Of a stretch of DNA of 64,000 nt, positions 2,250 through 62,424 are shown in pieces. The stretch lies in the NCBI RefSeq assembly GCF_018977255.1, contig NW_024704834.1:62001-126000 (forward strand), read 5' to 3'. The notes beneath the pieces were generated by a model, which was not told where the DNA came from, searched no databases, and saw only the letters and a program-made list of their open reading frames with translations. A program made the translations under genes and the position numbers. The stretch is from Callorhinchus milii (lineage: Eukaryota). Position 1 is the first letter of the stretch. Every line of letters starts with the position of its first letter.

Positions 2250-2407
2250 TCAGACGGTGCAGAGCTCAGGAGATTCCCTTTGATTCCCAATGGGAAGCTG
2301 TCGGTTCTTCTCGGTGTTATTTTCACAGTCTATATCATCATAATCATAATCACACTGACTGGAGTCAACAGGAAACAGCGGGTCACTGTCTGTGTGGTGT
2401 CCACCCT
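2250..2407 (-). CDS. Last coding exon with DYDDI motif and stop
   Basis: [29 protein letters not shown]...ELCTV*; ctctacag acceptor. Confidence 0.78.
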
Positions 2408-5400
2408 CTGTAGAGAGAACCATCATTTATTTACACGCCTAATAATAATCCCTCCAAAACCAAAAATAATAATAAAAATTGGTCATTTTCAATCTACGAC
2501 TGTTTGTGGGACATTGCTGTGCGCAATCGGCTGCAGCGTTCGCCCACAAATATACAGTCAATTCACTTTACAGTGTGTTCTGTGAAACGCTCTGGGACGT
2601 CGTCCCCACGTGAAAAGCGCTATATCAAATGCAAGGATTATTATTATTATTATTACCGATTATTTCAAGATCAGAGACACTGTGTGGGTTTGTGTTTGTC
2701 TGCGTGCTTTGTGTCTGTCTGTATGTGTGTGTGTCTGTGCGATTGTCCATATGTGTAAGTCTGTGAATGTCTGACTGTGTTTGTTGAGTTGTCTGTGTGT
2801 GTCTCTGCGTGCGAGTGTGTGTGTGTGTGAGAGAAAGAGAGAGAGAGAGAGAAATACAGACTGGAAAGAAAACCATCTTGTATTTTTGACTGTGTGGTTT
2901 AACTCCATCGCTGTAATCAAAATATCGTCACTTGAAGGGTTGGGTGTTCAAGATAGAATTCCTCCTCACTTTTTAAATTTTAATGGGATGAGTAATTTTT
3001 GAACATTCATTTAAATAATTCATGATAGTGTTGTAAACGATTATTTCCTTTACAACATCTAGGTTGTTATTAACATGACGCAGAAACAAGGATAACTGCG
3101 TTAATCGATCAGTCCAGCACCATTTTATTCGTGCAGTTATTGACACTACACGGAGCACCATTCTGTATGTGCAATTATTGGCATTACAGAGCGCCTCGGA
3201 GATGAATTCATCAAACTCTGAAAAATCCGTTTCAGATTGCACATCGACCCGTAATTATTCTGATTTTAGATATCACAGCCAAGGCCAAATATCTCCAGCT
3301 GCCCGATTACCAAGCCCTTGCTGCAAACACGTACCAACTCGCCTACACATACAGTCACTACACATTGAAGCCTATCCGAGACATCCTGACTTGAAAAGCA
3401 CTGCACAATTGTGATTCCTGTTGTCTTTATGCCATTACATTTCTGTATGGAATGGAAGATTGATGATAATTGCGACTGTGATGATGATTTTTACTCCCAG
3501 GTGTGTTGCTGATTAAATATCTCCCGCAGTAAGTTAAGACATGACAGTTCGGCTGTTACCCTGACAGAGCGAGGCTTCCGGGACAGTGTGACTGGTCAGT
3601 GCGGGGACATCAGGGTGTGTGTCAGTGACCAGGAGGAGGCCACTTTCCGCCATCTGGAAGGATCCCCTCTCAGCGTCGTCGTAATCTTCCTGAAGATGAT
3701 CTGTTAACAGGGAGTCAGTCTTACGCACTCAAACATTCAGATGGAAAAAGGAGGCAGATATCATAATAATATACAGCACAGAAGGAGGCCATTCAGTCCA
3801 TCTATTGAAAGAGCGACCAAAATTACTCCAACTCCTCCGCGCTCTCCCCACAGCCCTGCAACATTGTCTTCCACAAATGTCTATCCATATCCACCCAAAT
3901 TTGGACACAGTGGTGCTCAAGGTGTCTTATGCCTGAACTACTGAAAAATCCTGAATTTCTTTTTAGATACTTTATCTGAAGATTAAAGCTTGACTTCCAG
4001 TGACAACTGGATAAATTGAGAGCTCTTTAGCCTCTGGGTCGGAAGGTTCTGATTGCAATCCACTCGGGGACTAAGATCACACTCTGGATAACACTCCACG
4101 GCAGTGCAGTGCGTTGAGCTCCGTTTGGATGTTCAGCTGGTATTTAAATATTGCAAATCTCAAAAGGGAAATAGTTCTTAAACCGGAGGTTTGCCCCACA
4201 TTCCTCCTGATTACTGTGCATATTTTGCGCACAAATTGCCTTTCCAGTTCACCAAGAGATATACAATCACTAAAAATCACTGTAAACATATGTGAAGTGC
4301 TTTGAAACGTCTCGTCGAATTGATCAGAGGCTGTATCACATACAATAATTATTCCGCACACTCACCATCGCCATTCGGAAGATACACCTCAGCGTTTTCT
4401 TGTTCTGCATCAGATCCATTCACACTCTCCCCAGTGTAGTACTCCAGTTTACTGATAGAATCGTTGGATCCTGAAACTGAGCAAATAATGTCATTACTGT
4501 CCAGTTACGGAATTTCTTAGAGTCTAATTCTATACCTATATCAAAATACAGAAAGATACCAAAATATGAGATTTTTTTCCAAAAATCGTGGATCACTTTT
4601 CATGAATGAATATATGGTAAACCGCTCAGCAATGTAATGTAGGTCAAATGTTGGTTAAATATTATTAACATGATCTTGGAATACTGCTTCTGTTCAGGCT
4701 AAAGATTACATTTGGCAACAAGGTATGATTTTAGATATTCGTTTGGACTACAGAACCACAATAAGCATCGCTTATATTAATTTCTGTAGGATTCGTTTTG
4801 GTGAAGTAATAAAGCCCACTATCTAACAGTTATTTTACTGTATATTAAATTAACTTATAACTAAGTTCGATTGGTCAATGCTGAAATCATCGGTGATAAT
4901 ATTTGAAAATTGAAAGACCGAACAAATTGAAGTATTGAGTAGGTTTCATCTCTATTAAGTGGGTAAATTGATACAAGGCAACAAGATGTGGCTTTTTCAG
5001 TTCTCTGAATAAAAGCTTGAAATCCTATCCACAGCGCATTCAATCATTTGCATTTGCTACCAATCGGGATACTAATGTTGATGCTTTTTGTACAATGATG
5101 CGGATACAATAACCATGATTGTAAAGTATGTACCAGAGGAGCCAGACTCAAACTTTCTTCTTCTGATCGGCCGTTCCTCAATTTCTTCATAAACTGCTTG
5201 ATACAAACGAACAGACGGATACTTTTCGTCTGTTGGAAGTTGACATGTACAGAAATTAAAATATTAACCTGAAATTGCACAATGGAGTTTGAAACTGATG
5301 TGTAAATATTTGGAACATGTTACGTTAGTATTATTATTTGAAAATATCAATATATCATCGTCACTATTGCCTCATTATTCATCAGTGTACTTGTTTTCGT

Positions 5401-8400
5401 AAGTATTTGTTTCAATCGGTAAATATGACTGTGCATTTGTATTTAGGTACCTACAAATATCTACTTAGCTCTGTGTGTTGGTGTATTAATACAACTGTGT
5501 ATTTGTGATGCTTTGGGTATCTAAGTTTTTGTGTCAGTTTAACTGCTCTTTTTTNGTATCCTTTATGAAAAATATGTTATTGCGCTCAGTTTACGTTGAG
5601 GCCTAATTGTGTCTGCTGGTTTCTTTATGCATCTGTGGTTGTGTTTGAGCTACGCATTTGAACGCAAATGTTTTTAATTTTAGTTTGTGCAACTTAACAG
5701 ATACATGTGAACACAGCAATGAAATCGAGACGGTAAAAACAGGTAAGAGTATTAAGTTAACAAAAGAGACACGTGTATCAACAGGATTTTATCTGAATTG
5801 ATAGAGAAGCTCCAGGCAGTGCTGTGAGTTCAGAATCCAGTCTCACCTCTTCCTGAAGAATTACTGTCCATCCGTACAATCAGTGCAAAGAGTACCACCG
5901 CTAACAGGATTCCAAGGACGATGCAGACCACGAAAGGTATGTTGATCAGCTGGACTTTGCAAGTCAAAGACATAACATTTGTTATTTTATTGTTGTACAA
6001 CATGTGATAGTCACACTTTCGAAACTATAAAGATAAATGCTTCACACTAAACTGAACGATAACTGAAGCAAATTATTGCACGGTGTATGATATGTTGCAC
6101 AGTGTATTCAGAATAATGCCCAAACTATCTGACAAATTGTGCTGATGCAGCTCTTTTCCTGAAGTTAAACGTCTGTTAATTTCTAAAATGTAGTTATACA
6201 GTCTGTTCATTTCTCAACTGTTGACTACTGAAAGGTTATTTGACAAATACACTGGTTTAGATATATAATTTTTTTTTACGAATGAATGGCAATACCTGGT
6301 GCTAATATATAGGAAAGCTAAGCAATGTGTCAGTAAGAAGTCAAGTAATTATGTTATTTACCAAAGGATGGGGTTGGGATTGGTTGTCTGGGAGGTTTAC
6401 CTGTAAAACATCACATACACCATTAATCCTTAACAATTCAATTTCTGGCTTGAAATGAAATGAGAATTAATCTGCTTTTGTTGAGAATAATTTTAAAAAA
6501 CTCAAATTTGTCGATAAACATTGAGTGACCGGATCCCTACCGGAGCAAACCACACCGGCGTCTTCTTTGTGAACGCAGTCGCTGCGACCCGCGGATGCGG
6601 AGACACAATCCCACAGAAAGGATTCGCTTCCTCTGCAGTGAAGCTCGTCCAGCCATATCTGACCAGCGCCTTGTCCGAACCCCGCCTGTCCCACAGCCCG
6701 CAGGGCCGGGCCGCAGTCCAGCTGTCCGCACACCACACTGGCCTCTCGGATATCCCAGGAGTCGTCACACACCGTCCCCCACGTGTTATTGCTCAGTATC
6801 TCAACCCTCCCCGAGCAATCGCTGCTTCCTCCAACCAACCGCAACACCTGTCCTGAATACACAATATTCATAACACCACTGTCAATTACTCACACAATAA
6901 AATACGCATTGTTCCGTATTATTATCAACAACCCCAACCTCTTCCTTTGGTAAATATTCATCGCAGTAACTATGATTTATGGTATCAGCTTAGTAACAGA
7001 GTCCAGTAGCTCAGTGGTTAGAGCACTCGCTTTGCAAGCGAGAGACTTGAGTTCAATTCCAGGCAGAGGGCGAAACCTTGGGCAAGTTTCCTTACTCCAC
7101 ACAGAGCCTAATAATAATCCATTCAAAACCAAAGCGATAAAAAAATTGGTCATTTTCAATCTGCGACTGTTTGTTGGACATTGCTGTGCGCAATTGGCTG
7201 CCGCGTTCGCCCACAAATATACAGTCAATTCACTTTACAGTGTGTTTGTGAAGCTCTTTGGGACGTCCACCCGACGTGAAAAGCGCTATACTAAAATGCA
7301 ATGATTATTATTATTATTATTCCAAATCAATAAGCCTTCACCTTCGATAGTAATAATAACAATTTGATCGCGCATTCCACGACTGCTTTTGGGACATTGC
7401 TGCGCGAAATTCGATGAAAACAAAAATATATATATGTATTCCTCATTTCAATCCATGACTGTTTGTGAGATATTGAAGTGCATTATTGATTGCCGCGTTT
7501 CGCTCTCGAATATACAGTCATTCACTTTGCGGTTTATTGTGAGAAGCGCTTTTGCTTGTTTCGAAGACGTGAAAATTGCCGTATCTAATGCAAAGATTAT
7601 TACTATTATTATTAGTAGGCAGTCGATGCACCTTAATTTAGGTACTGTGAAACGCTTTTAGAAATACTCCTGATCTGGATGTTTTGATGTCAAATATAAG
7701 TACTACTAATTGGTTTATTTTCCATTCAGTACCTGATAAATGATGCTGATCAGGTGAGCTTCCAGGGCACTGTTTCGCACCATCCTTTTTTTTCGGAGAT
7801 TTCTCTGCATGAAATATATATTTAGAATTAAATTATTTCGAATATAAACGTAATAAATATTACCTCCGAAATGTGCATTTAGGAGCATGTTGTTACCTGA
7901 ACAAATTACACCCACATCTTCCCGATGATCACAGTTATGTTCACCCCAAGGTGGCGACGAACACTGCCACAAGAAGGATTCATTTGAGTTACACGCTATG
8001 TCATCCAACCAAATAGGTCCAGATCCTTCGCCAAATTTACCAGCATCATCAACTTCCAGAGCTCGGCCACAATCTAACTGTTTGCAGATCACCTCAGCAG
8101 CCTCGAGTCCCATCAATTCAATTCCCATGACGTCCGAGCAGACTGTGCCCCAGGTCTCATTGTAAAACACTTCCACTCTCCCCTCACAGGAGTGTTGTCC
8201 ATTGACCAGCCGCAGCATCTTGTGCTCTGTGGACCAATATTGACTTTTATCATTAATATTTTCGATTCAGTTGACCTGAGGTATCCTCTCTTTTTCAGAC
8301 TCCGCCACTGTAAAGCATTCCAGGACGACACCACATGGGATGACGCTATATAGTGGTAAATATTTGTTGTGGCTCTACACATTTTATTTCGTGTGGAGCA

Positions 8401-11400
8401 GCGTTTTTTGCATAATATGTATTATTTATGCTGGAACAAGTTAGTATAATTTGTCACATTACAATAGTCCTTTCCAATATTATCAGTTGAGAATAATCCT
8501 TATATCTGATAACAAAAAGCAATGGAGTTGATACCTCTCAACCGAACCATAGCTAATATACTTTTTGCAGGGATTTTTTTTCTGTGGTGAGGGAATATGT
8601 AGTCATATTCTGCAATGCAATCTCCCAGAATCAAATCGCCATGTATGCTCTGGAGGAGTATTGGCCAATATATGAGGATGAACTCTATTGTGACCTGAAC
8701 AAGTAGTGATAGCCTCGAGAGGATTTCCTCCTGTACGAAATTGTCAGTCTTTACCTTGATTACCCTATGTGGGTGAACCCCACTTACATCTGACTCATCG
8801 GTTAGAGCGCTGATAACAGAACCAGACTGATATGCTATCAGTAGAGTGTGATGGTGAAACACAAGGTGTTGTCATCTCTTACCTGAACACACAATGCTCA
8901 CATCTTCTTTATGACCACAGTCATGCTGCCCCCATTCAGACGAGGCACATTCCGAGAGAGCTGATTCCTTTCCTGAGCATCTCACCTCATCCAACCAAAC
9001 TTGTCCTGAGGCGCTCCCACAAGGGGCAGCAGATATTGCATCAACTGCAGATCCACATCCGAGCTGTTTACAAACAACATCCGCCTCACGTGATCCCCAG
9101 GAGTCATCACACACCGTCCCCCAGGTTTCATTGTAGTAAATCTCCACTCTCCCAGCACACGAACTCCCACGGTCCATCAGTCTGATGTGAGTATCCTCTG
9201 TTGAGCATCAACAACATTATATTTAATGACAGCATGCATCAGGCTGATCTGATCAACTTCTGTTGGTAATGAACAAAATTTATTTCACGATATAGCATGC
9301 AGCATTTTATGGAGTATAAAATAATGATCAAGTGAGTCGAGGAAAGATGTGCTGAGTAGCTAATAATACAGCAAATTATCAGTCAACTGCCACATCTTCT
9401 TCATTCAAGTATAACGTGGCTCTACCATCGCACATTGCACACAAACAACCTAAGAATAGAAAATTCTCAAATGCAAATTACAGTTAAATAACTACCATAT
9501 TAACCCTTGTGTTTGACGTAACAGCTTAACACATGTTCCAAACGTCTCAAAACGCTTTAAGGTATATCATTTAATGAGGTTTGCATGCATTTTTTGTGAA
9601 CGACATGCGGGAACCAATTGCACACAACGGTGTTCCACAGAGAGTCGTGTATTGAGTGATCAAATTATTATTATATTACTTACTTATTTATTGGAGAGTT
9701 TATCCCCCCCCTCCCCCAAAATGCCACCAGGCCATCGAGTACCATTCCACTATAAGTTAAAATCTCGCGGTGAAATTTATAATATTGATAATCATTCACT
9801 CACTTGAACACTGAACTCCAACATCACACATGTCCTCAGTTGATTGGTTTCGCCTGGACGGTTTGCACTTCAAAAGATTCGTCTCATTTCCTTGACAGTG
9901 AACATCCTTCAGCCATGGGGACCGTTCACCTTCTCTGTACACTGTGGAGTTATAGGATCTTATGGCAGGACCACAGCCCATCTGTCTGCAAACCACATTC
10001 GCGTCATTTAAATCCCAGAACTGATCCCGCACTCTCCTCCAGTCTCCATGGCGGTAAACCTCCACTGTTCCAGAGCAGGAACTGCCATCATCCACCAGTC
10101 TGAGCTGTTTGTGATCTGTTTCAAAGTTAAGTAAAACTACAGGTTTCCGATTGGGAAAACTTATCGTTTGCGTTTCAGTATTTTGCTTGAAATGAAAAGT
10201 TATTCAATCTGTTGAGTGTGAATGAACCTTCATTCTTTATTAACCGCCATTTTCTTGGCACAGCACATTAAGCACAACACATGTGGAATCATTCAATGAT
10301 ATGGGGCGTTTCTACATCATTGGATGAACAAAAACTCCCAAAAGGAAGGAATGTTGTAAGATATTTCACAAAGCGATATTGAAATTTCCATTGATTTTTA
10401 TTATTTATCACTAAAGTGCACTCACCCGAACAAAGAACTCCCACATCCCGGCTGGTCCTGGAGGATGAAGCCACTGTGGAATATGGGCAGTTCCAGATGT
10501 GTGTCTCGGTTCCCGCGCACTGAACATTATTGATCCACACAGGTCCACTGCCTTCCCCGTATTGGGAAGAGTTGTAGACTGAAACAGCAGAGCCACAGTT
10601 CAACTGTCGGCAGATGACATCGGCATCCGATATATTCCAGGAATCGTCCAGCAATCTGCCCCATGTGCCGTTATGATAAATCTCCACTCGCCCATCACAG
10701 CGGCTCCCACCGCTCTCTAACCGTAAGTGCCACTGCTTACCTGCAACGATTACAATCAATACATTCACAATGAAAACGTGTGAGAGCTGAAATGAAGATA
10801 AACATAGCTTTATCGAATTACAAACTGACAGTTCCAAAGTTACAATGTACCTGATAGTGTCCTACAAAGCTCTATGATGATGCAGAAAATATAACTATTC
10901 GTAGACTGCCATGTTAGCAATGACTAAATTTACACATATATTTTGCCCACCAGCCCAGTAACCCAGTGTAATGCACAAAATAGTATATGACGACAAGAAC
11001 CGTTAACTATACGGATAATTGGAAAAACTGATTGCAATTGTAGAAGTAAAGCATTATCGACACAGCCTGAAAACCGGAGGGTGTTCCTCATCAGCACAGC
11101 GCTACAATATGGGAGTGAGAGGTAACCGCTGTGGCTCTGGAATCTACGCTACTCCGCTCTCGTTGCGAATAATACAATTAATGTGTTTTTACAGATTCAA
11201 GCTTTACTGGTTTATTTTGAAAATCCAAGGAAGACAGGAATTTGTTTTTTTTGCTGAGTTTTAGCGTTTCAGATTGTTCTCATCTCTGATAACTAATGAA
11301 AACTCATCACAAATGTTACTTTTATATTATATCAAATTCTCCAAAGCAGACAGCGTGTTATTTTCGAAAAAAAAGGTGGCTTCGGTTAGAAAGAGTATGT

Positions 11401-14400
11401 CTCAGCTGTTTTGTGGATAATGATTATTTTGCTTAAAAAATATACAGTGACTACACTTTACATTATACTCTTTCAAGCATTTTGAGTCGCCTCAATGACG
11501 TGGTAAGGAATTATCTCAAATGTAAGGATTATTACTATTTCACTCACCCGAACATACAACAGAAACGTCATTGTTATGTGTGCAGCTGAAGATGTCCCAG
11601 AATGACACAGGACATTCCAACACTCGGGACTCGTTACCAAGACAGTTGAAGTTAGTTTTCCAGATAAGACCTGTTTCATTTCCAAACTGTGCTCCAGGAC
11701 CAGATGACAAAGCGAAACCACAATCCAATTGCCTACACAGCACATCGGCGTCCTGTAAATCCCAATAATAATCGCAGATGGTTCCTGATCTGTAATATCG
11801 CTGCAACTCAACTCTGCCAGAACAGCTGTTATTTCCACCGATTAATCTTATTGAATGATGCTCTGTAATCGAAGAATCAAATTAATATGAATTATTAATA
11901 ACAAAATGAATCCCGATAAGCAATTAATAATTGACAGAATCATTATTTGTGGAAAGCGAACAGGCGAAAACTGAAACAATGAACAGAAATGTAGAGTCGG
12001 CAATCTACGTGTAGTTTCGTGCCAGGGGACTCAGACAGTGTTGAGTAATATGAATATATCTCCAAGTATTTTGTGCGTTTTGAAAACAACACAATATACG
12101 AATATTTCGCAGCTCAAACGTTAGAATGACGTCCCAACATATTTAATAGTACCAGTTCTGTGCGCCTCTGAGAGGATGAGGACTGGAATGACAGCGCTTG
12201 CTGTGAATAGGGGAGTCTGAGAGGGTGAACAGTGACAGTAACTGCTGTGTAAACGATAAGAGGATGAGTAGGGGAATGACAATAAGCTGTGTTATGGTGG
12301 TCTGAGAGTGTAAGGAGCGACAGAAGGATGTGATCAAGAATGCTGAAACACGAGTTGTTTTCTTTGCACAGTGGTGTGTGCTGGTGCAGTCGCCCATCCC
12401 GATTTTCACCAGTGGCTTTTTATTTAAAAAGTACTCTGAAAATCAAATATTAGAGCACAATCTTTTTCTTAATGCTGCAACATGTGTTGACAATTTAGCG
12501 AAGGCTGTACCTGAACAGAAAACGCCAGCGTCTCTCTGGTGCCCGCAGTCAGGTCGACCAATAACATTCCCCGATCCTTCCCCAAAGTGAGCGTCGCCGA
12601 ATACAAATGCAGCAAATCCACATCCCAAATGTTTACAAATCTCTTCTGCCATCTCTTGGCTCAGTTGATTCCCACAAACTGTCCCCCAAGCGACCTTATT
12701 GTACAATTCCACTCTTCCCGCACAGTGGCTGCTTCCATTCACCAATCTGGGGATCTTACCTCCTGCCAATTATATCAGATTGACCATCCTCAGGGATGTT
12801 ATACATTTTCACTGCAATAAAACAATAACTACAACTTGCATTTATATCGCCGACATAATGATATAGCGCCCCACACCTAGAGGAGTGGGCAAGAGCGCTT
12901 ATCAAGTCCGTATAATCGCAAATTGTGGGCGTGTGGCATTGGGTTTTCCATGGTCAACAGCAGATATGCATGGAATGACAGGTACGGGAAAAGTGTCTCA
13001 GAAGACAAAAGAACTCTGCATATATTACTTCGAAATATATATATGATTAAAACATTCGTAATGCATCTGTTTTCGGATGGTGACGGGGAAACACGTCCTG
13101 CGGGAGGAAATGATCTGTCGATGGTGGGCATTCAGCTGGAAAATTCGGCTCGAAAAGAAATGTAGCCATCAAGTCTGTGTACGAGGACCTGCATTAAGTT
13201 TTTCGCTTTTTTGGGGAAGAGCTTGTTGAGACAAGCGATTTATGTGTTATGGTAGAAGCCAGCGCTGAAGAGATGTTTGTAGGAATCAAAAGGAAAGGTC
13301 TCGATTTCGTAATACAAAAATGAAAAAGATTAATGCTCATCAACACTGTCTATCTACGCATTCGCTTGTGGCAGCATCTTGGAATGATGAGGATTTAAAA
13401 TTCACGGATAATTCCTGATAAAAGGCCTTTCGCTTCTGTGTGACATCTAATAGCACTGTTCAGGGTTCATTATCAAATTCAATGATACTTTATTGAAGAG
13501 CATTTTTGCCCAAATTTCAAAATATGTCACCAATAAGGCTACAAGGAGGGGTTGGGGCACTGAGGAGAACAGCATGACCTTAAGCGTCAGGAGGAAAAGC
13601 CGTTTGAGTTCAGATAATAAACACATATTATCCAGCACATAGTTACATAAAGTTTGAAAATTAATTTGTTTACCTTTTGCAACTGTAATTTCACACTATA
13701 AACATCCTCAAAGTTGATGTCGCGCCATTTACGACAGGAGGATGTCTCAAACCTTTTCACAAGGTGTGCTATCAAGTTTAGTGACTACATATATTCTAAG
13801 GCAGCTCGGGAATGGTAAAACTTGTTTCAATTAAAACAACAATTTGTAATTGTGTAACTTGTCTCGGACCGGTTAACAGTGGCTGACGCCGAATTGGGGG
13901 CGTGGGAGAGGGGGGAGTGGGTGGAGGGGAAGGTGGGGTGGGGTTACATTGTGATTTCCCAAAGGAGAGATTTTATAGTACTAACCTGTCATAATGTGGA
14001 ATACAATCTCTATCAGAGTTTCTCAAACTGTGGTTTAACGAAAATACGAGGATTGAAAAAATTGATGAAATTTTTACCTGAACAGATGACGCCGGCATCG
14101 TAGGAGTGTGACCAGGAATAGTGACCCCAGGACCATGAGCGACAACCCCTCAGAGTAGACTCACTCCCGCTGCACTGAACGTCAGCTGTCACAAGGCGAC
14201 CTGAGCCTTCTCCAAAGTGAGCGCCACCTGATGCTGACAGCGCGTCTCCACAGCCCAACTCCTTACACACTACAGCCGCGTCCAACATATCCCAACCATA
14301 GCCATACACTGTGCCCCACTGTCCATCGTGGTAGACCTCCACTCTCCCGGCACACGGGCTCCCGCCATTCGCCAGCCTCAAATGATCTGCAAATAACATC

Positions 14401-17400
14401 ACCAATAACATGCCTTTGTATTTGATTTCCAATCACGCAGGATACTCATAATTAAACTAACAAAACTTGTACTTAACCGGAAGTTCTTTATCAATCCTAG
14501 TTGTTGTTGTTGTAGCTGTTGTATTTACCAACACGGTCACTGCTCCTTACGGTAAATTCTGTGAAGCTTTGGAAGAGTTGTGCAGCATTATGTTTAATAT
14601 ATTTATAATTAAATTATATATAATTATAAATTATTTTAGATATATTATATATTTTAATATATTATATTTAATCAATGATGGGAATTTAACGATGGTTTAC
14701 AGACCATGATAGATTTAATGGTGCTGCACATTCCACGTATCCTCATACGTCAGGTGACATTTATAGGCTCACGGGGATGTAGGACAATAATAATATGTTT
14801 GGATAATTGATACAAGACGAAAGGTAAACGTGCAATGAAATTGATTTGCGGATAGTTGGATGGGAGCACAGGCTGGAGAAGCGATTAAATAATCAGACGA
14901 TTTGAAGTACAGAACAGGCAGTTTAAAGCTTTGTTATTCAGGTTTGCTTAGATAGGAGAATACATAATGCAGGGAAAGGTCATTTTAGCTTTCTTTTACA
15001 CTTTATTTTTAGTGAAACAATCAGTCAATATATATTAAAGCTTTCATGCTCAGGATATGCCTTGACATTAATCGCCTTGAGCGTTCCTAAAAATATGACG
15101 ATAAAATCCAAAGAAACAATGGAAATGTTCCTCTCAATTGAACATCAACAACAACAACAAGATTCAATTTACAGAGCGTCTTTCACGTCGGGAGGACGTC
15201 TCAAGGCGCTGTACAGTTGGGTCAGGACCCAAGAAGGGGGGTAATGGTCATGGTGAGGGGAGTGAAGGGAGAGAACGAGGAGGGTGTAGAGAGTCGAGAG
15301 GGGAGCTGAAGGCTCGGTCAAAGAGAAAGGTCTTGAGAACAGCCTTGAAGGAGGAAAGGGAGGAAGCGAAGGCGAAGGCACTGGGGAATAGAGTTCCAGA
15401 TCATCGGGGCTGAGAGGCTGAAGGCCCGGCCACCGATGGTAGGGCGGTTGAGGCGGGGGATGTGGAGCAGACCGGAGCCAGAGGAACGGAGGGTACGGGC
15501 AGGTAGGCAGCGGGACAGTAGGTCAGAGAGGTAGGAGGGAGCGAGGCCGTGAATGGCCTTGTAGGTGAGGATGAGGATCTTGAATTCGATCCTCTGGGGG
15601 ATGGGGAGCCAGTGGAGGCGAGCGAGGGTGGGAGTGATGTGGTCCCGAAGCCTGGTGCGGGACAGTACACGAGCTGCAGTGTTCTGAATGACCTGCAGTG
15701 TGCAGGGAGGGCCGGGAAGGCCGACGAGGAGAGAATTCCCATAGTCCAGCCTTGAGGTGATAAAGGCGTGGACCAGAGTTTCAGCCGCGTGAGGGGTGAG
15801 GTAGTGCCGTAGTCTGGTGACATTGCGGAGGTAATGGAAGGAGGTGCCAGTTGTAGCGCGGATATGAGGGAGAAAGGACAGCTCAGAGTCGAACAGAACC
15901 CCGAGGTTCCTGATGGCTTTGAGAGGTGGAGAGTGCGGCCTTGGATGCTGATGCTGTCAGCGCCTGAGGTGCGGAGGCGCTGACGTGAGCCAATCAGGAG
16001 GGCCTCAGTTTTGCGCACTTTGAGCTAAAGAAAGTTGACTCTCGTCCAGGACTCGATGTCAGACATCGGTGGTCGTGGAGTTGAGGGTAGAGGAGGAAAG
16101 GTAGAGTTGGGTGTCATCCGCATACATGTGGAAGTTAACCCCATGTCTGCGGATGATGTCACCACAGGGGGAGCATATAGAGGGTGAAGAGGAAGGGACC
16201 GAGAACAGAGCCTTGAGGGACACCGCACGAGACAGTGCGGGGCGTGGAGGAAAAACCATTTGTGGAGACAAAGTGAATACGGTGGGAGAGGTACGACCTA
16301 AGCCACTCAAGGGCAGGGCCTTGAAGTTAGAGGTGGAAGGACAAGCCGTGGAGGAGGATAGCGTGGAAGACCGTATCGAATGCTGCCGATAGGTCGAGGA
16401 GGACGAGGAGGCAGAAGGAGCCCTGGTCACAGATGGTCAGGATGTCATTCGTGACCTTGACCAGGGCAGTTTCTGTGCTATGGGCAGCACGGAAACAATT
16501 CAGTATTGTTAAGGAAAGAAAAAAAACAGAAGCAAAGATTTAACTTGATATGTATTCAATTTGTGGAATAGATCATCAGAGCAAATACAATATCTTCTTG
16601 TCTTCTTGTACATATTTAGCACCTATCACCCGTCTTTGTATATGTATAGCGTCTTTGAGCACTTAATGGGGCAGAGCTTGACCTGAAATACTGCAACACT
16701 ATTTCTGAATCCATCCTCCTTGAGTCGACGTTGAAATAACATTAGGAAGAGCTTCCTGGAATCCTGTAGCTCAGTGGTTAGAGCACTCGCTTCGCAAGCG
16801 AGAGACCTGAGTTCAATTTCAGGCAGAGGGCGAAACCTTGGGCAAGTTTCCTTACTCCACACAGAGCCTAATAATAATCCCTCCAAAAACCAAAAACAAT
16901 AACAAATTGGTCATTTTGAATGCACGACTGTTTGTGGGATATTTCTGTGCGCAATTGGCTGCCGCTTTCGCCCACAAATATACAGTCAATTCACTTTACA
17001 ATGTGTTCTGTGAAGCGCTTTGGGACGTCCTCCTGACGTGAAAAGCGCTGTATGAAATGCAAGGATTATTATTATTATTATATTATTATTGTTATTCGAC
17101 CTTCTGTTTCTGTCTGTCGGTGTCCTACTGTCTCAGGCGCTCTGAGACATTCATAATATCAAAGAACCGACCAGCACAAAAAAAAGTCCATTCGGTCCAT
17201 CGAGTCTTTGCCGTCTCTTTCAAAAGAGCAATGTAACGTCAATCCCACTCCCCGGCTCTTTCTCCATAACCCTGCAAACCCGTTTTCCTCAAATACCCGT
17301 CCACCGCGTTTCTAAAAGTATTTATCGAATCCGCCTCGACCATTTCAGGAAATGCCTTCCAGATTCGAACAACTCGCTGCATGAAAAAAAAATATTTTCA

Positions 17401-20400
17401 CCTGCCCTCTGCTTCTTTTAGTGACTGATTTAAATCTTTAACCTCGAGTCACCGACACACCCACCACTGTATCAGTTTTTTTCCCTTTCTAACCTATCAA
17501 TTCCCCTTATGACTTTGAAAACCTCTGTTAGGTCTCCTCGTAACATTCTCTGCTCCAATGGGACTAATCTTAGCCTCTCGCTTCCACTGCACTGAACATT
17601 CAACTTCATAATGGACCTGAGCCTTCGCCAAAGTGAGCGTCTCCTGATGCTGACAGCGCGGCTCCACAGCCCAACTCCTTACACACCAAAGCCGTGTCCA
17701 GCATATCCCAGACAGAGCCATACACTGTTCCGCATTTCGTCCATGGTAAAACTTCTGATTTATCGACACACGGGCTGCCCCCTTTCGCCAGCCTCAAATG
17801 ATCTGCAAAAACATGATCTGCCATAGTATAATCAGTAAAATAGATTTGTATTTGATATGCAATCACGCAGGATAATCATAATTATAACAATAATCCTCAT
17901 AATTGTACTTAACCGCCGCATTGGCCTAAACAGACATCGTCCCTTACAGGAAGTTCTGTGAAGCGATGGAAGAGTTTTGCACTCTTTTTTAATACATTAT
18001 CCAATACAGACGAAATCATGAATGGGAATTCACAATGTTTTAAGAATAAAGTATATTTAAACGTGCTGCATCTGCGTATCCGCACATGTCCCCTGGCACT
18101 TACGTGTTCAGCACAATGTGGGAGAAATGCATTTCCCATTTGATAATTCATACAAGAAGAAATGTAAAAGTGAACGTGAATCCACGTGCGGATGGAGGGA
18201 TGGGAGAGCAGGCTGGAGAAGACGACTTGAGGAACAGAATGAAGATATAATAGTCGTGTTACTGAGGTTTGTGCAACAATAAGGTGAGGACAGACGCAAC
18301 ACAAAATGTCTTGAAGTTCTGGGATAGATCATCAAAGCAACAACATCCTCAATTTGTACGTATATAGCGACTGTCACCCAGAGTATCATCTCTGGGCAAT
18401 TAATAGGTTAGAGGTTGCCTTGGAAATCTGGAACACTCTTGCTCAATCCCTTCCCTGTGACTCCTCTTTTAGATCATATTGAAAAATCTTCCTGTTCAAC
18501 AGTGCTACGTTCAACTCTCCCTTTATCCAGGGTTGCTGTTGCTACAAGGCGGAGCGATTGTGGGATTGTTTTCAATGAAGCACTTATCATTATCCTAAGG
18601 ACATACTGTGTATTTCTATATATTTTAAATCATGCATGAAAACATGTCTGATTCCATGATTCCATCTCTCCTGAGCAGATAAAGGGAGTAAAGATAACGA
18701 ACATTGCCCGGCGGCGGAGGGCTTCGGTCCTGGGACAGCAGACAAGAAGTGTTTAATAATATAAAATAATATCAGAGTTCCTCAAACTGTGTTTAACCGA
18801 AAATATGAGGGCTTCCAACAATGATCAGGAAACGAATTATTCACCTGAGCAGATGACGCCGGCATCAGAGGAATGTGACCCAGGATAGTGACCCCAGGGC
18901 CGTGAGTAACAATCCCTCAGAGTAGACTCACTCCCTCTGCACTGAACTCGAGACGTCACAACGGGACCTGAGCCTTCACCAAAGTGAGCGCCTCCTGGTG
19001 CTGACAGCGCGGCTCCGCAGTCCAACTCCTTACACACCACAGCCGCGGCCTTCATATCCCAGGTCCCATAGCCATCTACTGTGCCCCATTGTCCATCGTG
19101 GTAAACCTCTGCTCTCCCGGCACACGGGCTGCTGCCATTCACCAACCTCACTAGACCTAAAAAAATGTCAAAAGCAGTATGTAATGTGTTTAATTTCCAT
19201 TCACACAGGATAATTCTAATTATAATAATAATCCTCATAATTGTACTTAGCTACCGCATTTGCCTGAACAGTCACTGTCCATTACGGTAAGTTCTGTGAA
19301 GCGATTGAAGAGTTATCAATGCGTTTTATCCAATACAGACGAAATTCTGAATGGGACTTTACAACAACAGCAACAACACCATTGCATTTATAGAGCGCCT
19401 TTCACGTCAGGAGGACGTCCCACGGCGCTGAATGCTTTTCAGAACCGAACAGTTTTAAAGTTGATGAAGCCACGTCTCCTCATATGACTCCCGGCACTTA
19501 CAGATTGATCGCATTATTCCGATTGTATAATTCAGACAAAGTAAAGGTTAAACGTGAAGCGGAACCGGCGTGTTGATGGTAGTACGAGAGCAGAGTGGAG
19601 CAGCCTATCAATTATTGAGCCGATTTGAAGAACAGATCGAAGGTATAAAAGTCGTGTTACTGAGGTTTGGATAAATAGGGAATTACATAAACTGGGGACA
19701 GTGTACTCAGGGAGCCTATCAACTTACATTCCAGTTAGACTCCTTTCTCAATAAGATAGTCAGTCAATATGTAAAGATTGTCGTGCTCAAATGGAAGACA
19801 CAAGTCGCCTTTATTGTTCCGAGTATTAAGGGGTTAAAATTCAAACAAACACAGAATATAGTCGTCTCCATTCAGTAATGTAAAGGAGCGAAATAGGTTG
19901 AGGGCAGACTCAACATAAGAAGCATTGAAGATGCGGGATAGATAATCACAGTAACAACAGATAATCTTGCATTTATTTAGCGCCTGTCATCCAGAATAGC
20001 GTTTCTTATCAATTGACAGCTCAGAACTTCCTATGCAACTCTGGAATATTCTTCCTCAATCCCTCCTCCGTGACTCCTCTTTTAGAACATATCGGAAGAC
20101 CTTCCTGTCCACATTACATCCGGTCACTTCTCTCTTAAACCTGGGTCGGTGTCGCCGACGAGGCGGATTCATTGTTCTCGATTATCCTGAGGACATACTT
20201 TGTATTTCAATAATTTTAGTCTAAATCTGAAAACAAGCCTGATTCAAGGATTAAAGCCTCTCCTGAGCAGAAAAAGAGAGAATAACGAAAGTCTACATTG
20301 AGTGGCGGAGGTGGGCTGAGGTTAGAGGGCAACGTGACTCCCCAAACTAAGGATTTAATAATAAACTGACCTAATGTGGAATATATGCTTTATCAGAGAT

Positions 20401-23400
20401 TCTCAAATTGTGTTTTACCTAAAATACGAGGACTGAAAATATGATCAGGGAATGAATTATTTACCTGAGCAGTAGACACCGACATCACGGGAGTGTGACC
20501 AGAACCAGGAATGGTGACTCCATATCCCTGAGCGACAATCCCTGAGAGCAGACTCGTTCCCTCTGCACTGAACATCATAAGTCACAATGGGACCTGAGCC
20601 TTTGCCAAAGTGAGCTCCTCCTGGTGCTGACAGCGCAAGTCCACAGCCCAACTCCTTACACACCACAGCCGCGTCCAACATATCCCAACCATAATAGTCA
20701 GACACTGTGCCCCATTGCCCATCGTGATAAATCTCCACTCTCCCGGCACACGGCTTGCTTCCATTCACCAGCCTCAAATAATCTGCAAAAATGCCACAAG
20801 CAACAGGTATTTGTATTTGATTTCGGATCACGCAACCTGATCATAATTATAGTAATAATTCTCATAATATCACATAACTGCCGCATTTTCGTACACAGTC
20901 ACTGTTCCTTTCAGTTAGCTATGCGATGCGATTGAAAAAGTTTACACTCTGTGTCAACGCTTTATATCCAACAAAGAAGAAATCAAGTGACTTCACCGTG
21001 CTTCCAGAACAAAACTGATTTAAAGTTGCTGCAGCCACGTGTCCACATATGTCACCTGACATGTACAGGTAGAGCGCGGTGACTGACAACGCTATTCCGA
21101 TTGTATAATTCATGAAAGAAGAAAGGTAAACGTCAAGTGATATCGACGCGTGAATGTTTGGGCGGGAGAGCAGTTTGAGAAACCTGTCAATCTTTGAAAC
21201 GATTTGAATAACAGAATGAGAATATTAAAGTCGTGTTACGGAGGTTTCTATCAATAAGGGAATACATAAAGTCGGGACAAGGAGGTCGCGAAGCATATCA
21301 ATTTAACTTCCATTTTCACTGGATATATATATATATATATATATCCCTGTCAATATATATTAAAATTTACATTCTCAGGTAGAAGACACACATCGCCTTG
21401 AGTGTTCCCACTAATAAAGCGTCGAAATTCAAACATCCAGTGGAAATTGTCCTCTCCATTTAAAATTGTCAAGGAGAGAAATAAGTTGAGGACAGACTCA
21501 AAATGAGATGATTTGAAGTTGTGGGATAGATCATCACAGCAACAAGACAATCATCTTGTACGTATGTACACTCAGAAGAGTGTCTCTGATCAACTAACAG
21601 CTCAGATCTTGCTCTGGAACTCTGCAGCATTCTTCACCAATCCCTCCTCCCTGACTCCCCTTTAAGATCATATCAGAAGACCTTCCTGTTCGAAAGTGCC
21701 TATGGTCATCTCCTTCTTTCTCTGTGCTCAGTGACATGTCGACAAGAGTTATGGGACACTATCCTGAACAAGGAAATGGGAAATAAACCGCTTTATAAAT
21801 GATAATTGTTGCTGTTCACGATTGAAGTCTGTAGACAGATGGGGCTTGTGGAGGAATGGGGGTTTAACCAGGGTATTATGTTGTACGTGAGTAGCAGCAT
21901 CGTGAAAATGATCAATTCTGTTAACGGAAGCCAATGGAGTCTGGCAAGTATAACGTCAGCAGCAAATTGCATTTACAGTTGCTGTATTTGGCGACTTTTA
22001 TGTCAGGAGAATGGTCCTCGTTATGTGCGTGCGGAGTTTGATGGTGGTTAACATACATAAAGTACATTTAAATCGATCACGTAAATGATCGATTTAAATG
22101 TATTTTGTGTATGTTACCCTGGGGAGGAACTAATTTTAAAAAGTAACCTAACACTCACCTGTTTGGTTAGCTTGACTATCGACTTCTGGGCCTGAAACGG
22201 AAAAGATATCACCAGTTAGATATTTTAGAAGATTAGTTGTGATGATGAAGCCCTTTGACCTATGCAAGTGAGAGGCCTGATTTCAATTCCAGGCAGAGGG
22301 CGAAACCTTGGGCAAGTTTCCTTACACGACACGCCTAATAATAATCCCTCCAAAAAAACAAAGCAATAATAAATTGGTAATTTTTAATCTACGACTGGTT
22401 GTGGGACATTGCTTTGCGCAATTGGCTGCCGCGTTCGCCCACAATTATACGGTCAACTCACTTTACAGTGTGTTCTGTGAAGCGCTTTGGGACGTGCTTC
22501 CGACGTCAAAAAGCGCTATACCGAACGCAAGGATTATATTATTATTATTATTATTAAGACTATTGCTAATAATAATCCTTGCATTGGACGCCGCGCCTGA
22601 TCACATCATTGAGACGTCTCTTAGCGCTTCACAGAATATAATGTAAAGTTGCTGACTTGTCTTTTGTGGGTGAAACGCGGCAACGAATGAGCACTGCGAT
22701 GTCCCACAAATGATCTAATTTCAAGCTAAATAATTCCAAAAATATGAAAATTATTTTGAAGAAGACTTATAACAACACATGAGGATGTACCCTCGTTTGG
22801 CATGGAAAACTAATTTATGGACTATATTTAAAGATCTTATAACGAATACAAAACGTACATTGATATAGCTGCGTCGGTTGGTTTACGACCTACTTACACT
22901 GTATGATAAATAATCTGCGAAGTATCTTTACTTTTGACGTGAATTTATTTGGATATTATCACAGAACATACATTCTTAAAGCATTTTACTATATGCACTG
23001 AATTCTCTGACTAATTTATCTGAAACAATCCTCATAGGTTAGTTCAATGCAACTATATATATAATAAATCAATTTAATAGTTAATAGTTTTACAGGCAGG
23101 ACAGTAAAATATAATGTGTATAAAAGCTAAATAGTGCGCCAATAAAATCACGTGTGTGTGCTGTTCTTTGCTGTATTTTAACTGATCTACAGAACACAAT
23201 GAATACTAATTTGACATTGAGGTATAACATCTCAAAATGCTGACGCAGCGCGAAGTGAGCAGATGCTGCGGCGGGAGAGATGTGGAGAAAGGTGGCCATC
23301 GTCACGTGGAAAAGGAACATTTGAGGTGGGTTTCAAAGAGCCACTGTGGATGGGGAGAGGTTGCGGGTGAAGATGCAACAACAGCAACGTGGATTAGTTG

Positions 23401-26400: not shown

Positions 26401-27764
26401 AAATCTGCTTATGTACCGCTATCAAGTGCAAAGAGCAAATATAAAATTAAATGTCATGCACTGGAACGGGACACTTACTGATGTGTTTAACTCAATGGTT
26501 CTTCATTTATTTACGTAAATTAATTTACTTTTACTGATTGCTTATTTGCCGATGTATTGAAAAACTTCAGCTTTCATTTTATTATGATACAATCAATATT
26601 ATTTGGAAAAAAATTTAAATTAAAACTGCATGTTAAATCCCTGCATTATCAGTCTCGTGTTTCACTAAAGAAGTGTCTTTTCATTGCTCACAGCAGCGCT
26701 GATACTGAACAGGAGAAATTGTACCAGAAACAGCTTCACTGTAACAGGACCGAGTCCCTCAGCGTGAGGTCTTCACTGTCAATTGTAGTTATTGGACAAC
26801 AACAGTCAATCCTTTTCTTTTGAGTCAATAAAGAAAGTAAAATACTGAACTCAAGATAGGAATAGATTCAGCCTTCAGTCTCTGCGCTCGGGAACTCCAT
26901 CCCCCAGTACCCACGACCCGCTACCTCTTTCCCCCCAACTCTCTGCCTTTTTCCCCTCTGATGAAAAGCAACAGAACCCTATGCGGAAAAACAATATGTG
27001 AGTTGAAATCTTCCTTTACATGCCGGTAATATGCAAGTAACGTTCAATCAAAGAAGCTTAATAGAAATCTTTTTCATAATCCTTTCAAATATTTCACTTG
27101 AATTCAGGTGCCACTGTGGTCTCCACCAAAAGAAGGGAATTCAACTCAATATATGTTAGTTATTGCTGATAAACTGCTCATATTTGAACTGTAAAGTAAA
27201 ACACACCAGCAACCAAGCCAGAATAGTATTTAATGCATTATCTAAAACCATCAAAAATATTTTAAAATTCACATCACACATAATCTGCTTAGAATTACAA
27301 CACTGACCAAATATTCACATTGCTCCAGGACTCACAGGCAATCGCTTCCAATGCGTTGAATTCAATATTTAAAACAGTTTTCACTATGTCACAAATGGTT
27401 TATGTGTTTGCACAGCAATCCATTTTTCAGACATTTTTTTATTCGTGAATGATTGGGAAAATGATCATCCAAATATTTCCCATATTTTGATCAAAAATAA
27501 AACCTTTTTTTGCCCGTTTCCCTTTTTTCCACTTTAAAATTTACCAACAACATGAAACGCCATATAGCAAATTGCAATTCAGTAAATATAACTTGATTCT
27601 ATTACACGATCAGTGTGTAAAGTGGTCAACGCTAACAGAGATTAATCACCTTCCTTAATTTTTAATAATAACACATAGTATGATTATGTTGAAGATATAT
27701 CAGAAACCATCAACTTACATGTCAGAATATGGAGAAGAAGGTAGATGACCAATGACCGCAGCAT
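2250..27764 (-). CDS. Whole-gene span: WC1/SCART/CD163-like group B scavenger receptor cysteine-rich (SRCR) type I transmembrane receptor, 18 coding exons, ~1273 aa
   Basis: All exons listed below have GT-AG boundaries, join in phase 1 without stops and total 3822 nt: signal peptide, 10 SRCR domains, stalk, TM, Tyr-motif tail. Confidence 0.88.
2433..2655 (+). mobile_element. 5'-truncated tRNA-derived SINE
   Basis: SINE body and tail ending in (ATT)n. Confidence 0.85.
3560..3700 (-). CDS. Cytoplasmic exon with EDYDDAE motif
   Basis: [16 protein letters not shown]...EASLCQ; 141 nt. Confidence 0.8.
4366..4476 (-). CDS. Cytoplasmic exon
   Basis: [37 protein letters not shown]; donor gtgagt; alternative in-frame acceptor starting at 4470. 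Confidence 0.78.
5134..5229 (-). CDS. Cytoplasmic exon with VYEEI motif
   Basis: [32 protein letters not shown]; 96 nt phase 1-1. Confidence 0.85.
5847..5954 (-). CDS. Transmembrane exon
   Basis: [36 protein letters not shown]; donor gtgaga. Confidence 0.88.
6362..6400 (-). CDS. Pro-rich stalk mini-exon [13 protein letters not shown]
   Basis: ttacag| 39 nt |gtaaat, phase 1-1. Confidence 0.75.
6541..6852 (-). CDS. SRCR domain 10 exon (membrane-proximal)
   Basis: [17 protein letters not shown]...WGTVCDDSW...[10 protein letters not shown]; 312 nt. Confidence 0.94.
6998..7321 (+). mobile_element. Full-length tRNA-Ala-derived SINE with L2-type tail
   Basis: A box TAGCTCAGTGG, anticodon arm CTCGC-TTTGCAA-GCGAG, B box GTTCAATTCC, (ATT)n tail. 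Confidence 0.9.
7897..8226 (-). CDS. SRCR domain 9 exon
   Basis: [17 protein letters not shown]...[12 protein letters not shown]; 330 nt. Confidence 0.93.
8883..9197 (-). CDS. SRCR domain 8 exon (9 Cys)
   Basis: [30 protein letters not shown]...[10 protein letters not shown]; 315 nt. Confidence 0.93.
9804..10115 (-). CDS. SRCR domain 7 exon (7 Cys)
   Basis: [18 protein letters not shown]...DVGVQCS; 312 nt. Confidence 0.88.
10426..10740 (-). CDS. SRCR domain 6 exon (lacks C2/C7)
   Basis: [24 protein letters not shown]...DVGVLCS; 315 nt. Confidence 0.9.
11548..11862 (-). CDS. SRCR domain 5 exon
   Basis: [17 protein letters not shown]...[12 protein letters not shown]; 315 nt; 8 Cys. Confidence 0.9.
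12511..12762 (-). CDS. SRCR domain 4 exon, internally shortened (lacks C5/C6)
   Basis: [16 protein letters not shown]...[25 protein letters not shown]; 252 nt, open. Confidence 0.85.
14078..14386 (-). CDS. SRCR domain 3 exon (lacks C2/C7)
   Basis: [26 protein letters not shown]...DAGVICS; 309 nt. Confidence 0.92.
15140..16495 (-). mobile_element. 5'-truncated LINE2 (RT C-terminus + 3' tail), probable TSD CAATT
   Basis: [13 protein letters not shown] motif, frameshifts, (TTG)n tail; CAATT at 15135-15139 and 16496-16500; empty site in paralogous intron units. Confidence 0.9.
16758..17095 (+). mobile_element. Full-length tRNA-derived SINE
   Basis: Same consensus as 6998..7321. Confidence 0.9.
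17160..17577 (-). mobile_element. CR1 LINE 3' fragment
   Basis: [10 protein letters not shown]-type ORF2 C-terminus and CR1-like 3' UTR. Confidence 0.75.
17578..17802 (-). pseudogene. Dead SRCR exon copy, paralog of domains 1-3
   Basis: [12 protein letters not shown]...[10 protein letters not shown] then stop/frameshift; 3' part and donor replaced by CR1 sequence after VQCSGSE. Confidence 0.85.
18845..19156 (-). CDS. SRCR domain 2 exon (lacks C2/C7)
   Basis: [26 protein letters not shown]...DAGVICS; 312 nt. Confidence 0.92.
20465..20782 (-). CDS. SRCR domain 1 exon (lacks C2/C7)
   Basis: [26 protein letters not shown]...DVGVYCS; 318 nt, AG/GT. Confidence 0.92.
22159..22191 (-). CDS. SRCR receptor exon 2, 33-nt mini-exon (C)[10 protein letters not shown]
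   Basis: tttcag| ... CAG|gtgagt, open phase 1-1 exon supplying a probable signal cleavage site. Confidence 0.72.
22262..22556 (+). mobile_element. tRNA-derived SINE with partial head
   Basis: SINE consensus from anticodon arm to (TTA)n. Confidence 0.85.
25348..25673 (-). mobile_element. Full-length tRNA-derived SINE
   Basis: Reverse complement of SINE consensus. Confidence 0.9.
27719..27764 (-). CDS. SRCR receptor exon 1, signal peptide [15 protein letters not shown]
   Basis: ATG with -3 G, hydrophobic 15-mer, phase-1 donor T|GTAAGT; joins exon 2 as ...[14 protein letters not shown]. Confidence 0.7.
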
Positions 27765-61158: not shown

Positions 61159-62424
61159 TACTTGCCGTCTCAAAGCGATTCACAGCATAAAATGTAAAGT
61201 AAATTGATAGTATAATCTGTGGGGAAGCGTGGCATCATTATTCTTTCGTACGATTCCAAAGTTAAGGGAGTTTATCCTTCCAGTTTCCAAACCCCACCGA
61301 ATCCGTCACTCCTCTACTGCTGTGTTTGGGTCATTGCTGCACAAACTGTGTGCCACGGAAGGTCACAAAACACACACTGTACAGTATATGCTGTACAGCG
61401 CTCTGAGACACGGATCTGAGCTGATATTGTGACTATCTTCATTAATGTTATAAGGCTACTCGTTGCGAAAAATATATAAACAACATTAAACAATGTGCAA
61501 ATAAGAAGATTTCTGTTGATGAACAGAATGTAGTCGATTCTTATCAACTCCGGTTTGTTGATCACCTGGAATATCATCACATGTTTGTATGATATCAAGG
61601 GAGTTATGTTTTATTCTCATGAATTCTTTGAAACTTAAACCAACCAGGTGAAGGATGGTGCCAGGCAAAATACAAGCAGCATTTCTAACTAACTCTTCTG
61701 CTTATTATATATAGTTAACACAAAAAAACTTCCAATTCACAACTGCAGAAAATGTGTACGCAAACACACTTATGGAAAAGCATTTAAGGAGAAATTGAAG
61801 TTGATAATACGACAAGGACTGCGTGATATATTCGGAGAAAATACACATTAATAAGCCTTGTTTTCTGCAGGGAAAGATTGACTAACGTTATGGGTTAAAT
61901 TCACGAAATAAACAATATAGTAGATAAAATAATAATAAGCAACGTGGCACATATAGACTGATATTAAATATGTTGTGTTTCAAATGGTAGAATGTCCCAT
62001 AAAATCATGACAATTGGTAATATTTTAGGTTAAAATTATGCCAACCCATGTACAGTGTGATCACCGCCTGTTCCTGACTTTTAAATCCCTCCGCGAATCT
62101 TTCCCCAACCGACCTGTGCAAATTCCTTACACTAAAATTGTTACTAACTTTGTCGTGATGCAAATTGCACAGACATGTTCGGCCTACTCCCCATCTGTCC
62201 CGCTCTGCATCAGATTTCACTTCACTCTGGCGCTCTGGGACGCTAACTTGCGTGAGAGCCGCTGTTTAAATATAAGTTGTCCGTTTTGTATAAACCTGGG
62301 GATTGGTTTCCTTGTACAACAGATACACTACTGACCAAAGGAAACATATTTCAGGAGCAGGAAACGATTCTAAATAAAATGGATTTAATATTGTTCTGTA
62401 TATACTTATTTGTTTATATATTGT

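Follow-up and report, generated by a model that had tools for sequence, protein, structure and literature searches.

The stretch of Callorhinchus milii DNA analysed here, the 64,000 nucleotides of contig NW_024704834.1 from position 62,001 to 126,000 (the window), carries a receptor gene whose three membrane-distal SRCR domains, termed V domains below, lack the cysteines C2 and C7 and differ in their loops. Our reading is that the V exons are probably tandem heads resembling the 'a' domain of WC1, that the genome-wide set numbers at least 115, and that the loops likely form a calcium-independent surface for binding microbes or parasites. These heads would be carried on three kinds of body, or chassis: an SRCR stalk with a WC1-like YEEI tail (S), as in the window gene, and two Ig-type bodies, which end either in a neutral transmembrane segment and a tail carrying immunoreceptor tyrosine-based inhibitory motifs (ITIMs; type A) or in an arginine-containing transmembrane segment and a short tail (type B).

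The variability is apparent within the window itself. Three intact six-cysteine exons, D1 (20465..20782), D2 (18845..19156) and D3 (14078..14386), are each open and flanked by an AG acceptor and a phase-1 GT donor, and one dead copy (~17577..17814) carries a frameshift and breaks off ahead of C6, where other sequence takes over; coordinates here and below are positions in the window, and the exons, all on the minus strand, were read from six-frame translations and splice sites. D1, D2 and D3 differ in three patches, whose letters we verified: the segment after WGTV (SDYYG, DGYGT and YGYG, respectively), the segment VTYDV, VTSRV or VTADV, and the C6-to-H loop, which has a different sequence in each domain. 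The first-pass annotation had noted the absence of C2 and C7 from all three domains. Both cysteines are indeed missing from D1 to D3, but their loss is not unique to them, since E7 (six cysteines) and E8 (seven) of the same gene also lack C2, and E7 is conserved, with constant length in 15 of 15 copies.

How far does this pattern extend beyond the window? A genome search with D2 gave 151 matches; 150 of 439 candidates were scored, so that the counts are lower bounds. From these, 130 places on 48 other contigs were taken, low-identity canonical matches being left out, and 119 stretches were retrieved. Together with the window they hold 141 V-class matches, 135 of them substantial and spread over 50 contigs; 116 (86%) are intact, with in-frame loop indels, and at least 115 are unique. 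Leaving out one V with a very long insert gives 114 aligned V domains. None of these has a cysteine at C2, nor does any combine a loop-1 cysteine with one in loop 3; loop 1 ranges from 4 to 12 residues and loop 3 from 10 to 29, and the loop sets are distinct in 110 of the 114. The loops are rich in glycine (18%), serine (17%), tyrosine (15%, compared with 1.6% in the framework) and tryptophan (9%), which bears out the surface composition foreseen from the three window domains. Across the genomic paralogs mean entropy is 1.94 bits in the patches and 0.73 in the framework (p = 4e-7), so that the differences do cluster as first supposed, and the disparity persists when V is subsampled to 15 sequences (1.50 versus 0.58). 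In the stalk domains E6, E9, E10 and E11 the matching positions do not stand out in this way (0.30-0.56 versus 0.20-0.57), and E5, E6, E7 and E11 are each of constant length across copies.

The genes of types A and B lie mostly on short contigs. On a 4.3-Mb contig there is a divergent S-type gene (G000:C29:588685-614441, L136-L138) in which V and E5 repeats alternate and which is nearer to elasmobranch V domains; its setting makes it of use for synteny. Large inserts also occur: a V exon upstream of an arginine-type transmembrane exon (G000:C36:426104, L094) has loop 1 enlarged by an acidic, in-frame insert of ~60 residues, and two V exons on contig C774, one of them broken, have long acidic inserts in loop 3.

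An AlphaFold2 model of D2, made with a 60-sequence alignment, has a predicted local distance difference test score of 94.9 and overlays SRCR8 of DMBT1 with a template-modelling score of 0.93 and a root-mean-square deviation of 1.4 over 101 columns. In DMBT1 (PMC7043408), one exposed cation is held by D1019, D1020 and E1086, and the other by D1020, D1058, D1059 and N1081. Because these cation-ligand positions map to V patches 1, 2 and 3, the patches appear, by homology, to occupy one face, and the overlay agrees with the earlier placement of the patches at the canonical cation and ligand site. Most of the acidic ligands are gone: among the 114 V domains the equivalents of D1019, D1020, D1058, D1059 and E1086 are acidic in 13, 9, 4, 34 and 1, respectively, implying that the cation site has been dismantled. 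The V domains thus have neither the five acidic ligands nor the C2-C7 bond of a canonical Ca2+ site.

Selection was examined with codon site models, using our own grid implementation (not PAML) on a FastTree topology with recombination ignored. For the V domains the comparison of M8 with M8a gives a doubled log-likelihood difference (2dlnL) of 358 and places 25% of sites at omega 2.5; the value is 46-81 in five random subsets of 15 V sequences, 0-8.5 in six stalk domains (13-31 sequences) and 9.2, with omega 1.3, in 73 Ig exons. Loop 1 has omega 2.5-3 under three settings (2dlnL 44-52). Replacement changes in this loop number 62 and silent ones 5 over 39 disjoint close pairs (pN/pS 5.0, confidence interval (CI) 2.7-19), and 34 and 2 over 27 pairs with identical gaps; the signal holds in each chassis taken separately. 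Positive selection on loop 1 is robust. The original suggestion that all three patches are under diversifying selection therefore stands clearly for loop 1 and is not shown for patches 2 and 3 as wholes, with their raised synonymous rates and omega of ~1.1-1.6; scattered sites, a few of them within patch 3 and others beyond the three patches, are still positive with a variable synonymous rate.

The window gene is a WC1/SCART-type member. It encodes a type I receptor with group B SRCR domains, one per exon, comprising the three intact V exons and the dead copy, seven further SRCR exons (E5 to E11), a transmembrane exon and four tail exons. At its 5' end we place a candidate signal-peptide exon (27719..27764) with a phase-1 GTAAGT donor, resembling the skate leader in P0144, and a candidate linker exon of 33 nt (22159..22191), with strong AG and GTGAGT sites, which is also a candidate leader exon. 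After the V exons comes E5 (12511..12762), a short SRCR domain of ~81 residues that has no C5-C6 segment and keeps six cysteines; there are ~50 copies in the genome, of constant length in the 31 intact ones, and on all three chassis E5 serves as a spacer. E6 (11548..11859), with eight cysteines, groups with the b/c domains of WC1 and CD163 (approximate likelihood-ratio support, SH-aLRT, 96). E7 (10426..10740) is a conserved six-cysteine domain, probably 'n'-like, E8 (9804..10115) a seven-cysteine domain like E7, E9 (8883..9197) a canonical domain with CDD, LDE and HKED acidic motifs, and E10 (7897..8226) an eight-cysteine domain. The membrane-proximal E11 (6541..6852) is of the d' type and clusters with the d' domain of WC1 and with domain 9 of CD163A (support 98/86).

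An uncharged transmembrane exon (5847..5954) and the four tail exons complete the gene. The tail motif of the WC1/CD163c family, Y-(Q/E)-(D/C/E)-(I/L) in Herzig 2010 (PMC2906472), is present as YEEI in tail exon 1 (5135..5230; AVYEEIE), which has the YEEL-type motif of WC1. Tail exon 2 (4367..4471) is followed by tail exon 3 (3561..3701), with EDYDDAE, and by the last exon (2250..2400, its 5' end approximate), with YDYDDID and the stop; the three motifs match AVYEELD, ENYDDAE and GYDDVE of bovine WC1. The strict WC1 domain order, a-(b-c-d-e-d)-(b-c-d-e-d'), is not that of the window gene, which runs V-V-V, short E5, b/c-like E6, six-/seven-cysteine E7/E8, E9, E10 and d'. Its nearest named proteins are from C. 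milii itself (69-75% identity), and a first homolog search, crowded with multi-SRCR proteins, had no WC1-labelled protein among the matches listed. Elsewhere in the window, a LINE reverse-transcriptase-like fragment recognised by eye (15200-16500) sits in the intron that separates the dead copy from D3, SINE copies are spread across the introns, and near-identical inverted stretches of at least 300 nt lie upstream of the gene at 53903-54205 (minus strand) and 62029-62331 (plus strand).

The resemblance to WC1 and SCART extends from the membrane to the distal head. In both, a d' domain lies beside the membrane, the tail is of the YEEL/YDDA/YDDV type, the genes form a multigene family with one SRCR domain per exon, and the distal six-cysteine domain lacks C2 and C7 and varies at the same positions. 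None of 58 distinct WC1 'a' domains from WC1-like proteins has a cysteine at C2 (52 have six cysteines and 6 have seven), and the variability profiles of V and WC1 'a' are correlated over 97 columns (rho 0.61). Since WC1 'a' shares both the missing cysteines and the variability profile, the module is of a known kind; what is new is its scale, its freedom of loop length and its paired Ig-type chassis. Even the tandem arrangement has a counterpart, in goat and sheep models with ~10 tandem 'a' domains (P0299, P0322). The differences are nevertheless substantial. At least 115 V exons compare with 13 bovine WC1 genes (Herzig 2010, PMC2906472; Chen 2012, PMC3511184); loop 1 has 4-12 residues here and a fixed 4 in 57 of 57 WC1 'a' domains; the loops are rich in Gly, Ser, Tyr and Trp, compared with Asp, Ser, Asn and Tyr in WC1; the stalk order is unlike the b-c-d-e-d' of WC1; and most assignable V domains are on Ig chassis, which were not seen in the WC1 proteins examined.

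Do V and WC1 'a' share one origin? In a quick tree V and the 'a'-like set are grouped only weakly (SH-aLRT 84), and in a careful tree a single clade of chondrichthyan V and WC1 'a' is neither found nor rejected (approximately unbiased test, p = 0.062, 40 of 97 rows), so that the loss of C2 and C7 in the two may be homologous or convergent, of one origin or of several. Support for grouping V with elasmobranch domains is 98 in the quick tree and 89/89 in the careful one. The V domain, likewise without C2, also occurs in proteins of horn shark, sawfish and skate, with a looser form in one gar protein. In teleosts and birds most of the related domains retain eight cysteines. Eel and loach have CD163-like proteins (P0014, P0030, P0091, P0106) with many V-like domains that are variable in the same patches and have mostly eight cysteines, occasionally six.

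Most of the repertoire appears not to be attached to a stalk like that of the window gene. Genome-wide there are ~23 E7 and 18 full-length YEEI exons, and only ~20 genes with an SRCR stalk; 73 of the 92 V clusters have no stalk in the retrieved DNA, and downstream of many such clusters lie between one and five Ig exons (115 matches in all). These exons match Pfam Ig_2/Ig_3 and, in the PDB, LILRB2, PIR-B, OSCAR, LILRA and FCRL5. The likeness is modest (E 2e-6 to LILRB2, with FCRL5 scoring too), and the nearest Atlas clusters include IGSF1-like, A1BG and KIR3DX1. Chassis A and B accordingly have C2-type Ig domains like those of the leukocyte receptor complex (LRC), with an ectodomain that is not Ig only, the V SRCR head preceding the Ig exons; many Ig and E5 exons are broken. 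Type A genes have a neutral transmembrane segment, and their last exon contains ITIM-type tyrosines; it has 26 matches, of which 25 could be aligned, and 20 of the 25 contain at least one strict ITIM. The transmembrane exon with short tail of type B has 28 matches, with arginine in 17 (16 open), histidine in 7, cysteine in 3 and proline in 1. Among the variants, in three A-type tail exons (L168, L173 and L174, on C237, C285 and C89) one ITIM tyrosine motif or both are lost, and these may be decoy receptors; in four B-type exons (L177, L178, L179, L182) histidine replaces arginine, and three others have cysteine and a stop.

Assigned to the first end within 25 kb, that is by genomic proximity, 26 V exons belong to S, 33 to A and 19 to B, with 36 having no assignment. 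With types so assigned, cross-type A/B pairs of V exons are 98.7%, 98.4% and 95% identical, 26 of 52 A/B V exons have an opposite-type exon as their closest neighbour on a different contig, and the V tree shows 21 changes of chassis label, compared with a minimum of 2 and a mean of 36 when shuffled. Independently, database gene models join V, E5, Ig, transmembrane and ITIM exons (P0339, with three tyrosine motifs in its tail, P0480 and P0331, and likewise P0482) or E5, Ig and arginine-type transmembrane exons (P0372); they are named only 'uncharacterized', 'DMBT1-like' or 'A1BG-like'. P0484 (UniProt V9KHJ3) is a complete leader-V-4Ig-transmembrane-tail protein, of an accession series that we take to be derived from cDNA. 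The genome has one match to the transmembrane segment of a zeta/gamma-family adaptor, not typed as gamma or zeta. The first-pass description of a germline-diversified, non-Ig receptor thus holds in being germline and large, and is true of the window gene itself, but not of the family, most of whose assignable members have LILR-type Ig domains with ITIM or arginine-transmembrane ends. A protocadherin-like arrangement, in which leader-V cassettes would serve one shared constant region, was also considered and rejected, since the orientations of the V clusters are mixed and Ig, transmembrane and tail exons of their own accompany them.

This organisation recalls several known receptors. LILR, PIR and OSCAR likewise have C2-type Ig repeats, ITIM-bearing long tails as against arginine-transmembrane short tails, and near-identical ectodomains on the opposite types, a pattern described for LILRB3/LILRA6 (PMC3894450); in those receptors, however, the variable, selected, ligand-facing domain is Ig, whereas here it is SRCR. 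DMBT1/SALSA and CD163A share the fold and the face on which the V patches lie, but not the absence of the C2-C7 bond and acidic ligands, and the repeats of DMBT1, at 88-100% identity (PMC7043408), are not diversified. SRCR domains joined to related Ig domains occur in other fish as DMBT1-like or IGSF1-like mosaics (Heptranchias, Scyliorhinus, Narcine, Latimeria, Polymixia), and 31 of 150 matches carry SRCR. Where displayed, these have a canonical first SRCR domain, mostly with eight cysteines, and Ig domains ~25-35% identical, and neither a V head nor an ITIM/arginine-transmembrane pairing is seen among those displayed. As the displayed mosaics combine canonical-type SRCR with distant Ig, the pairing of Ig with the V head may be holocephalan; of 18 library matches with at least 52% Ig identity, 16 clusters were looked up and 14 carry a C. 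milii label. Akula 2014 (PMC4016189) describes mouse FcRLS as an Ig and SRCR mosaic and reports no C2-only LRC homologues in sharks, and PMC2906472 traces WC1-type receptors to birds and monotremes. Our literature search, which covered little of the subscription journals, found no published description of SRCR-Ig paired receptors and no publication on WC1/SRCR in shark.

How might such receptors work? The V head would bind ligand at the former cation face, through aromatic and small-residue loops and without calcium. On the S body a phosphorylated YEEI tyrosine would co-stimulate lymphocytes, as in WC1; on the A body, with its one to five LILR-type C2 Ig domains, the ITIM tail would recruit phosphatases and damp the cell; and on the B body the transmembrane arginine would pair with an adaptor of the zeta/gamma family carrying activation motifs (ITAMs), giving an activating receptor. 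Duplication, together with gene conversion or exon shuffling, probably shifts V exons between chassis, and activating twins would be kept matched to inhibitory receptors that pathogens exploit. The V repertoire is then likely to be a large inherited set of paired microbe sensors.

Several observations weigh against this account. The trees do not resolve V as an orthologue of WC1 'a'. For the window stretch, none of the listed holders of matching sequence runs is on record as RNA, and the rows displayed, mostly SINE matches, contain no exon-exon join for the window gene; four runs are RNA by guess only, and in these the D3 exon is covered by contigs that differ at many letters (paralogs), two of them with a 15-nt in-frame insert in loop 1. 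Chassis were assigned by proximity, in at least one case across a leader exon, and 36 of 114 V domains have no assignment; 11 of the 28 B-type transmembrane exons have no arginine and 6 contain stops; and the small contigs may include uncollapsed haplotypes. The site models come from our own code and take no account of recombination. Patch 2 has an omega of 1.3-1.6, not significant, and patch 3 an omega of 1.3, with a pair ratio of 1.12 (CI 0.74-1.78) that falls to 0.64 in the 27 same-gap pairs; synonymous rates in the two are raised (alpha 1.45-2.7). The framework omega is also high, 0.52-0.67, and part of the V family may therefore be drifting. Could the whole pattern be birth-and-death drift, in an unstable, repeat-rich cluster where disulfide loss relaxed the loops and gene conversion and misalignment mimic selection? 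The rates in patches 2 and 3 and in the framework, the 19 of 135 substantial V exons that are not intact and the many broken Ig and E5 exons are what such drift would produce, yet it is improbable in view of the replacement excess in loop 1, which persists in pairs with the same gap patterns, the high proportion of intact exons, the in-frame loop indels and the constant length of E7, which has lost the same disulfide.

A more serious alternative, though in our judgement an unlikely one, is self-recognition, in which V would read a polymorphic host ligand, such as a major histocompatibility complex (MHC) or B7/Ig-type molecule, as KIR, LILR and Ly49 do, inhibitory forms sensing self and activating twins sensing altered self or pathogen decoys. 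The pairing of ITIM with arginine-transmembrane ends and the LILR-type Ig domains fit this, some LILRs bind HLA class I (PMC3894450), and CD6 binds a host protein by the same SRCR face (PMC7043408). Against this, WC1 a1, the closest domain relative, binds Leptospira directly (PMC5949365), selection falls on the SRCR head and little on the Ig domains, and one host ligand family would not usually call for more than 100 variants whose loops differ freely in length. By analogy with WC1, a ligand from microbes seems likelier than one from self. The CDR-like composition of the loops, the tandem V exons and the interspersed pseudo-exons might also suggest that germline V exons are templates that activation-induced cytidine deaminase (AID) mutates or converts in lymphocytes; such somatic diversification is barely credible, since each V exon is whole and can be spliced as it stands, the patches show no excess of AID hotspots (WRC/GYW density 0.070 in the patches, compared with 0.117 in the framework) and loop serines are encoded by TCN 462 times and by AGY 60 times.

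The preferred reading, of inherited WC1 'a'-like heads on three kinds of body, brings WC1-like and LRC-like features together in one chondrichthyan family, with a shared, positively selected head and at ~9 times the scale seen in cattle. Within the oldest lineage that has adaptive immunity, it puts forward concrete genes as candidate paired receptors, inhibitory and activating, and as a candidate gamma-delta co-receptor. The V domains are a natural library of the SRCR fold turned into a variable-loop binder, and the A/B pairs with near-identical heads make the questions of ligand and signalling directly testable. More tentatively, and with rather less confidence than we place in the heads themselves, we suggest that cartilaginous fishes may have a second, non-rearranging repertoire based on a hypervariable SRCR domain, with more than 100 germline heads in this chimaera shuffled among WC1-type and LILR-type bodies. 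WC1-like and LRC-like signalling would then have been combined in one family at the base of the jawed vertebrates, and these genes could supply the missing paired receptors of natural killer or myeloid cells in cartilaginous fishes and be expressed in variegated combinations.

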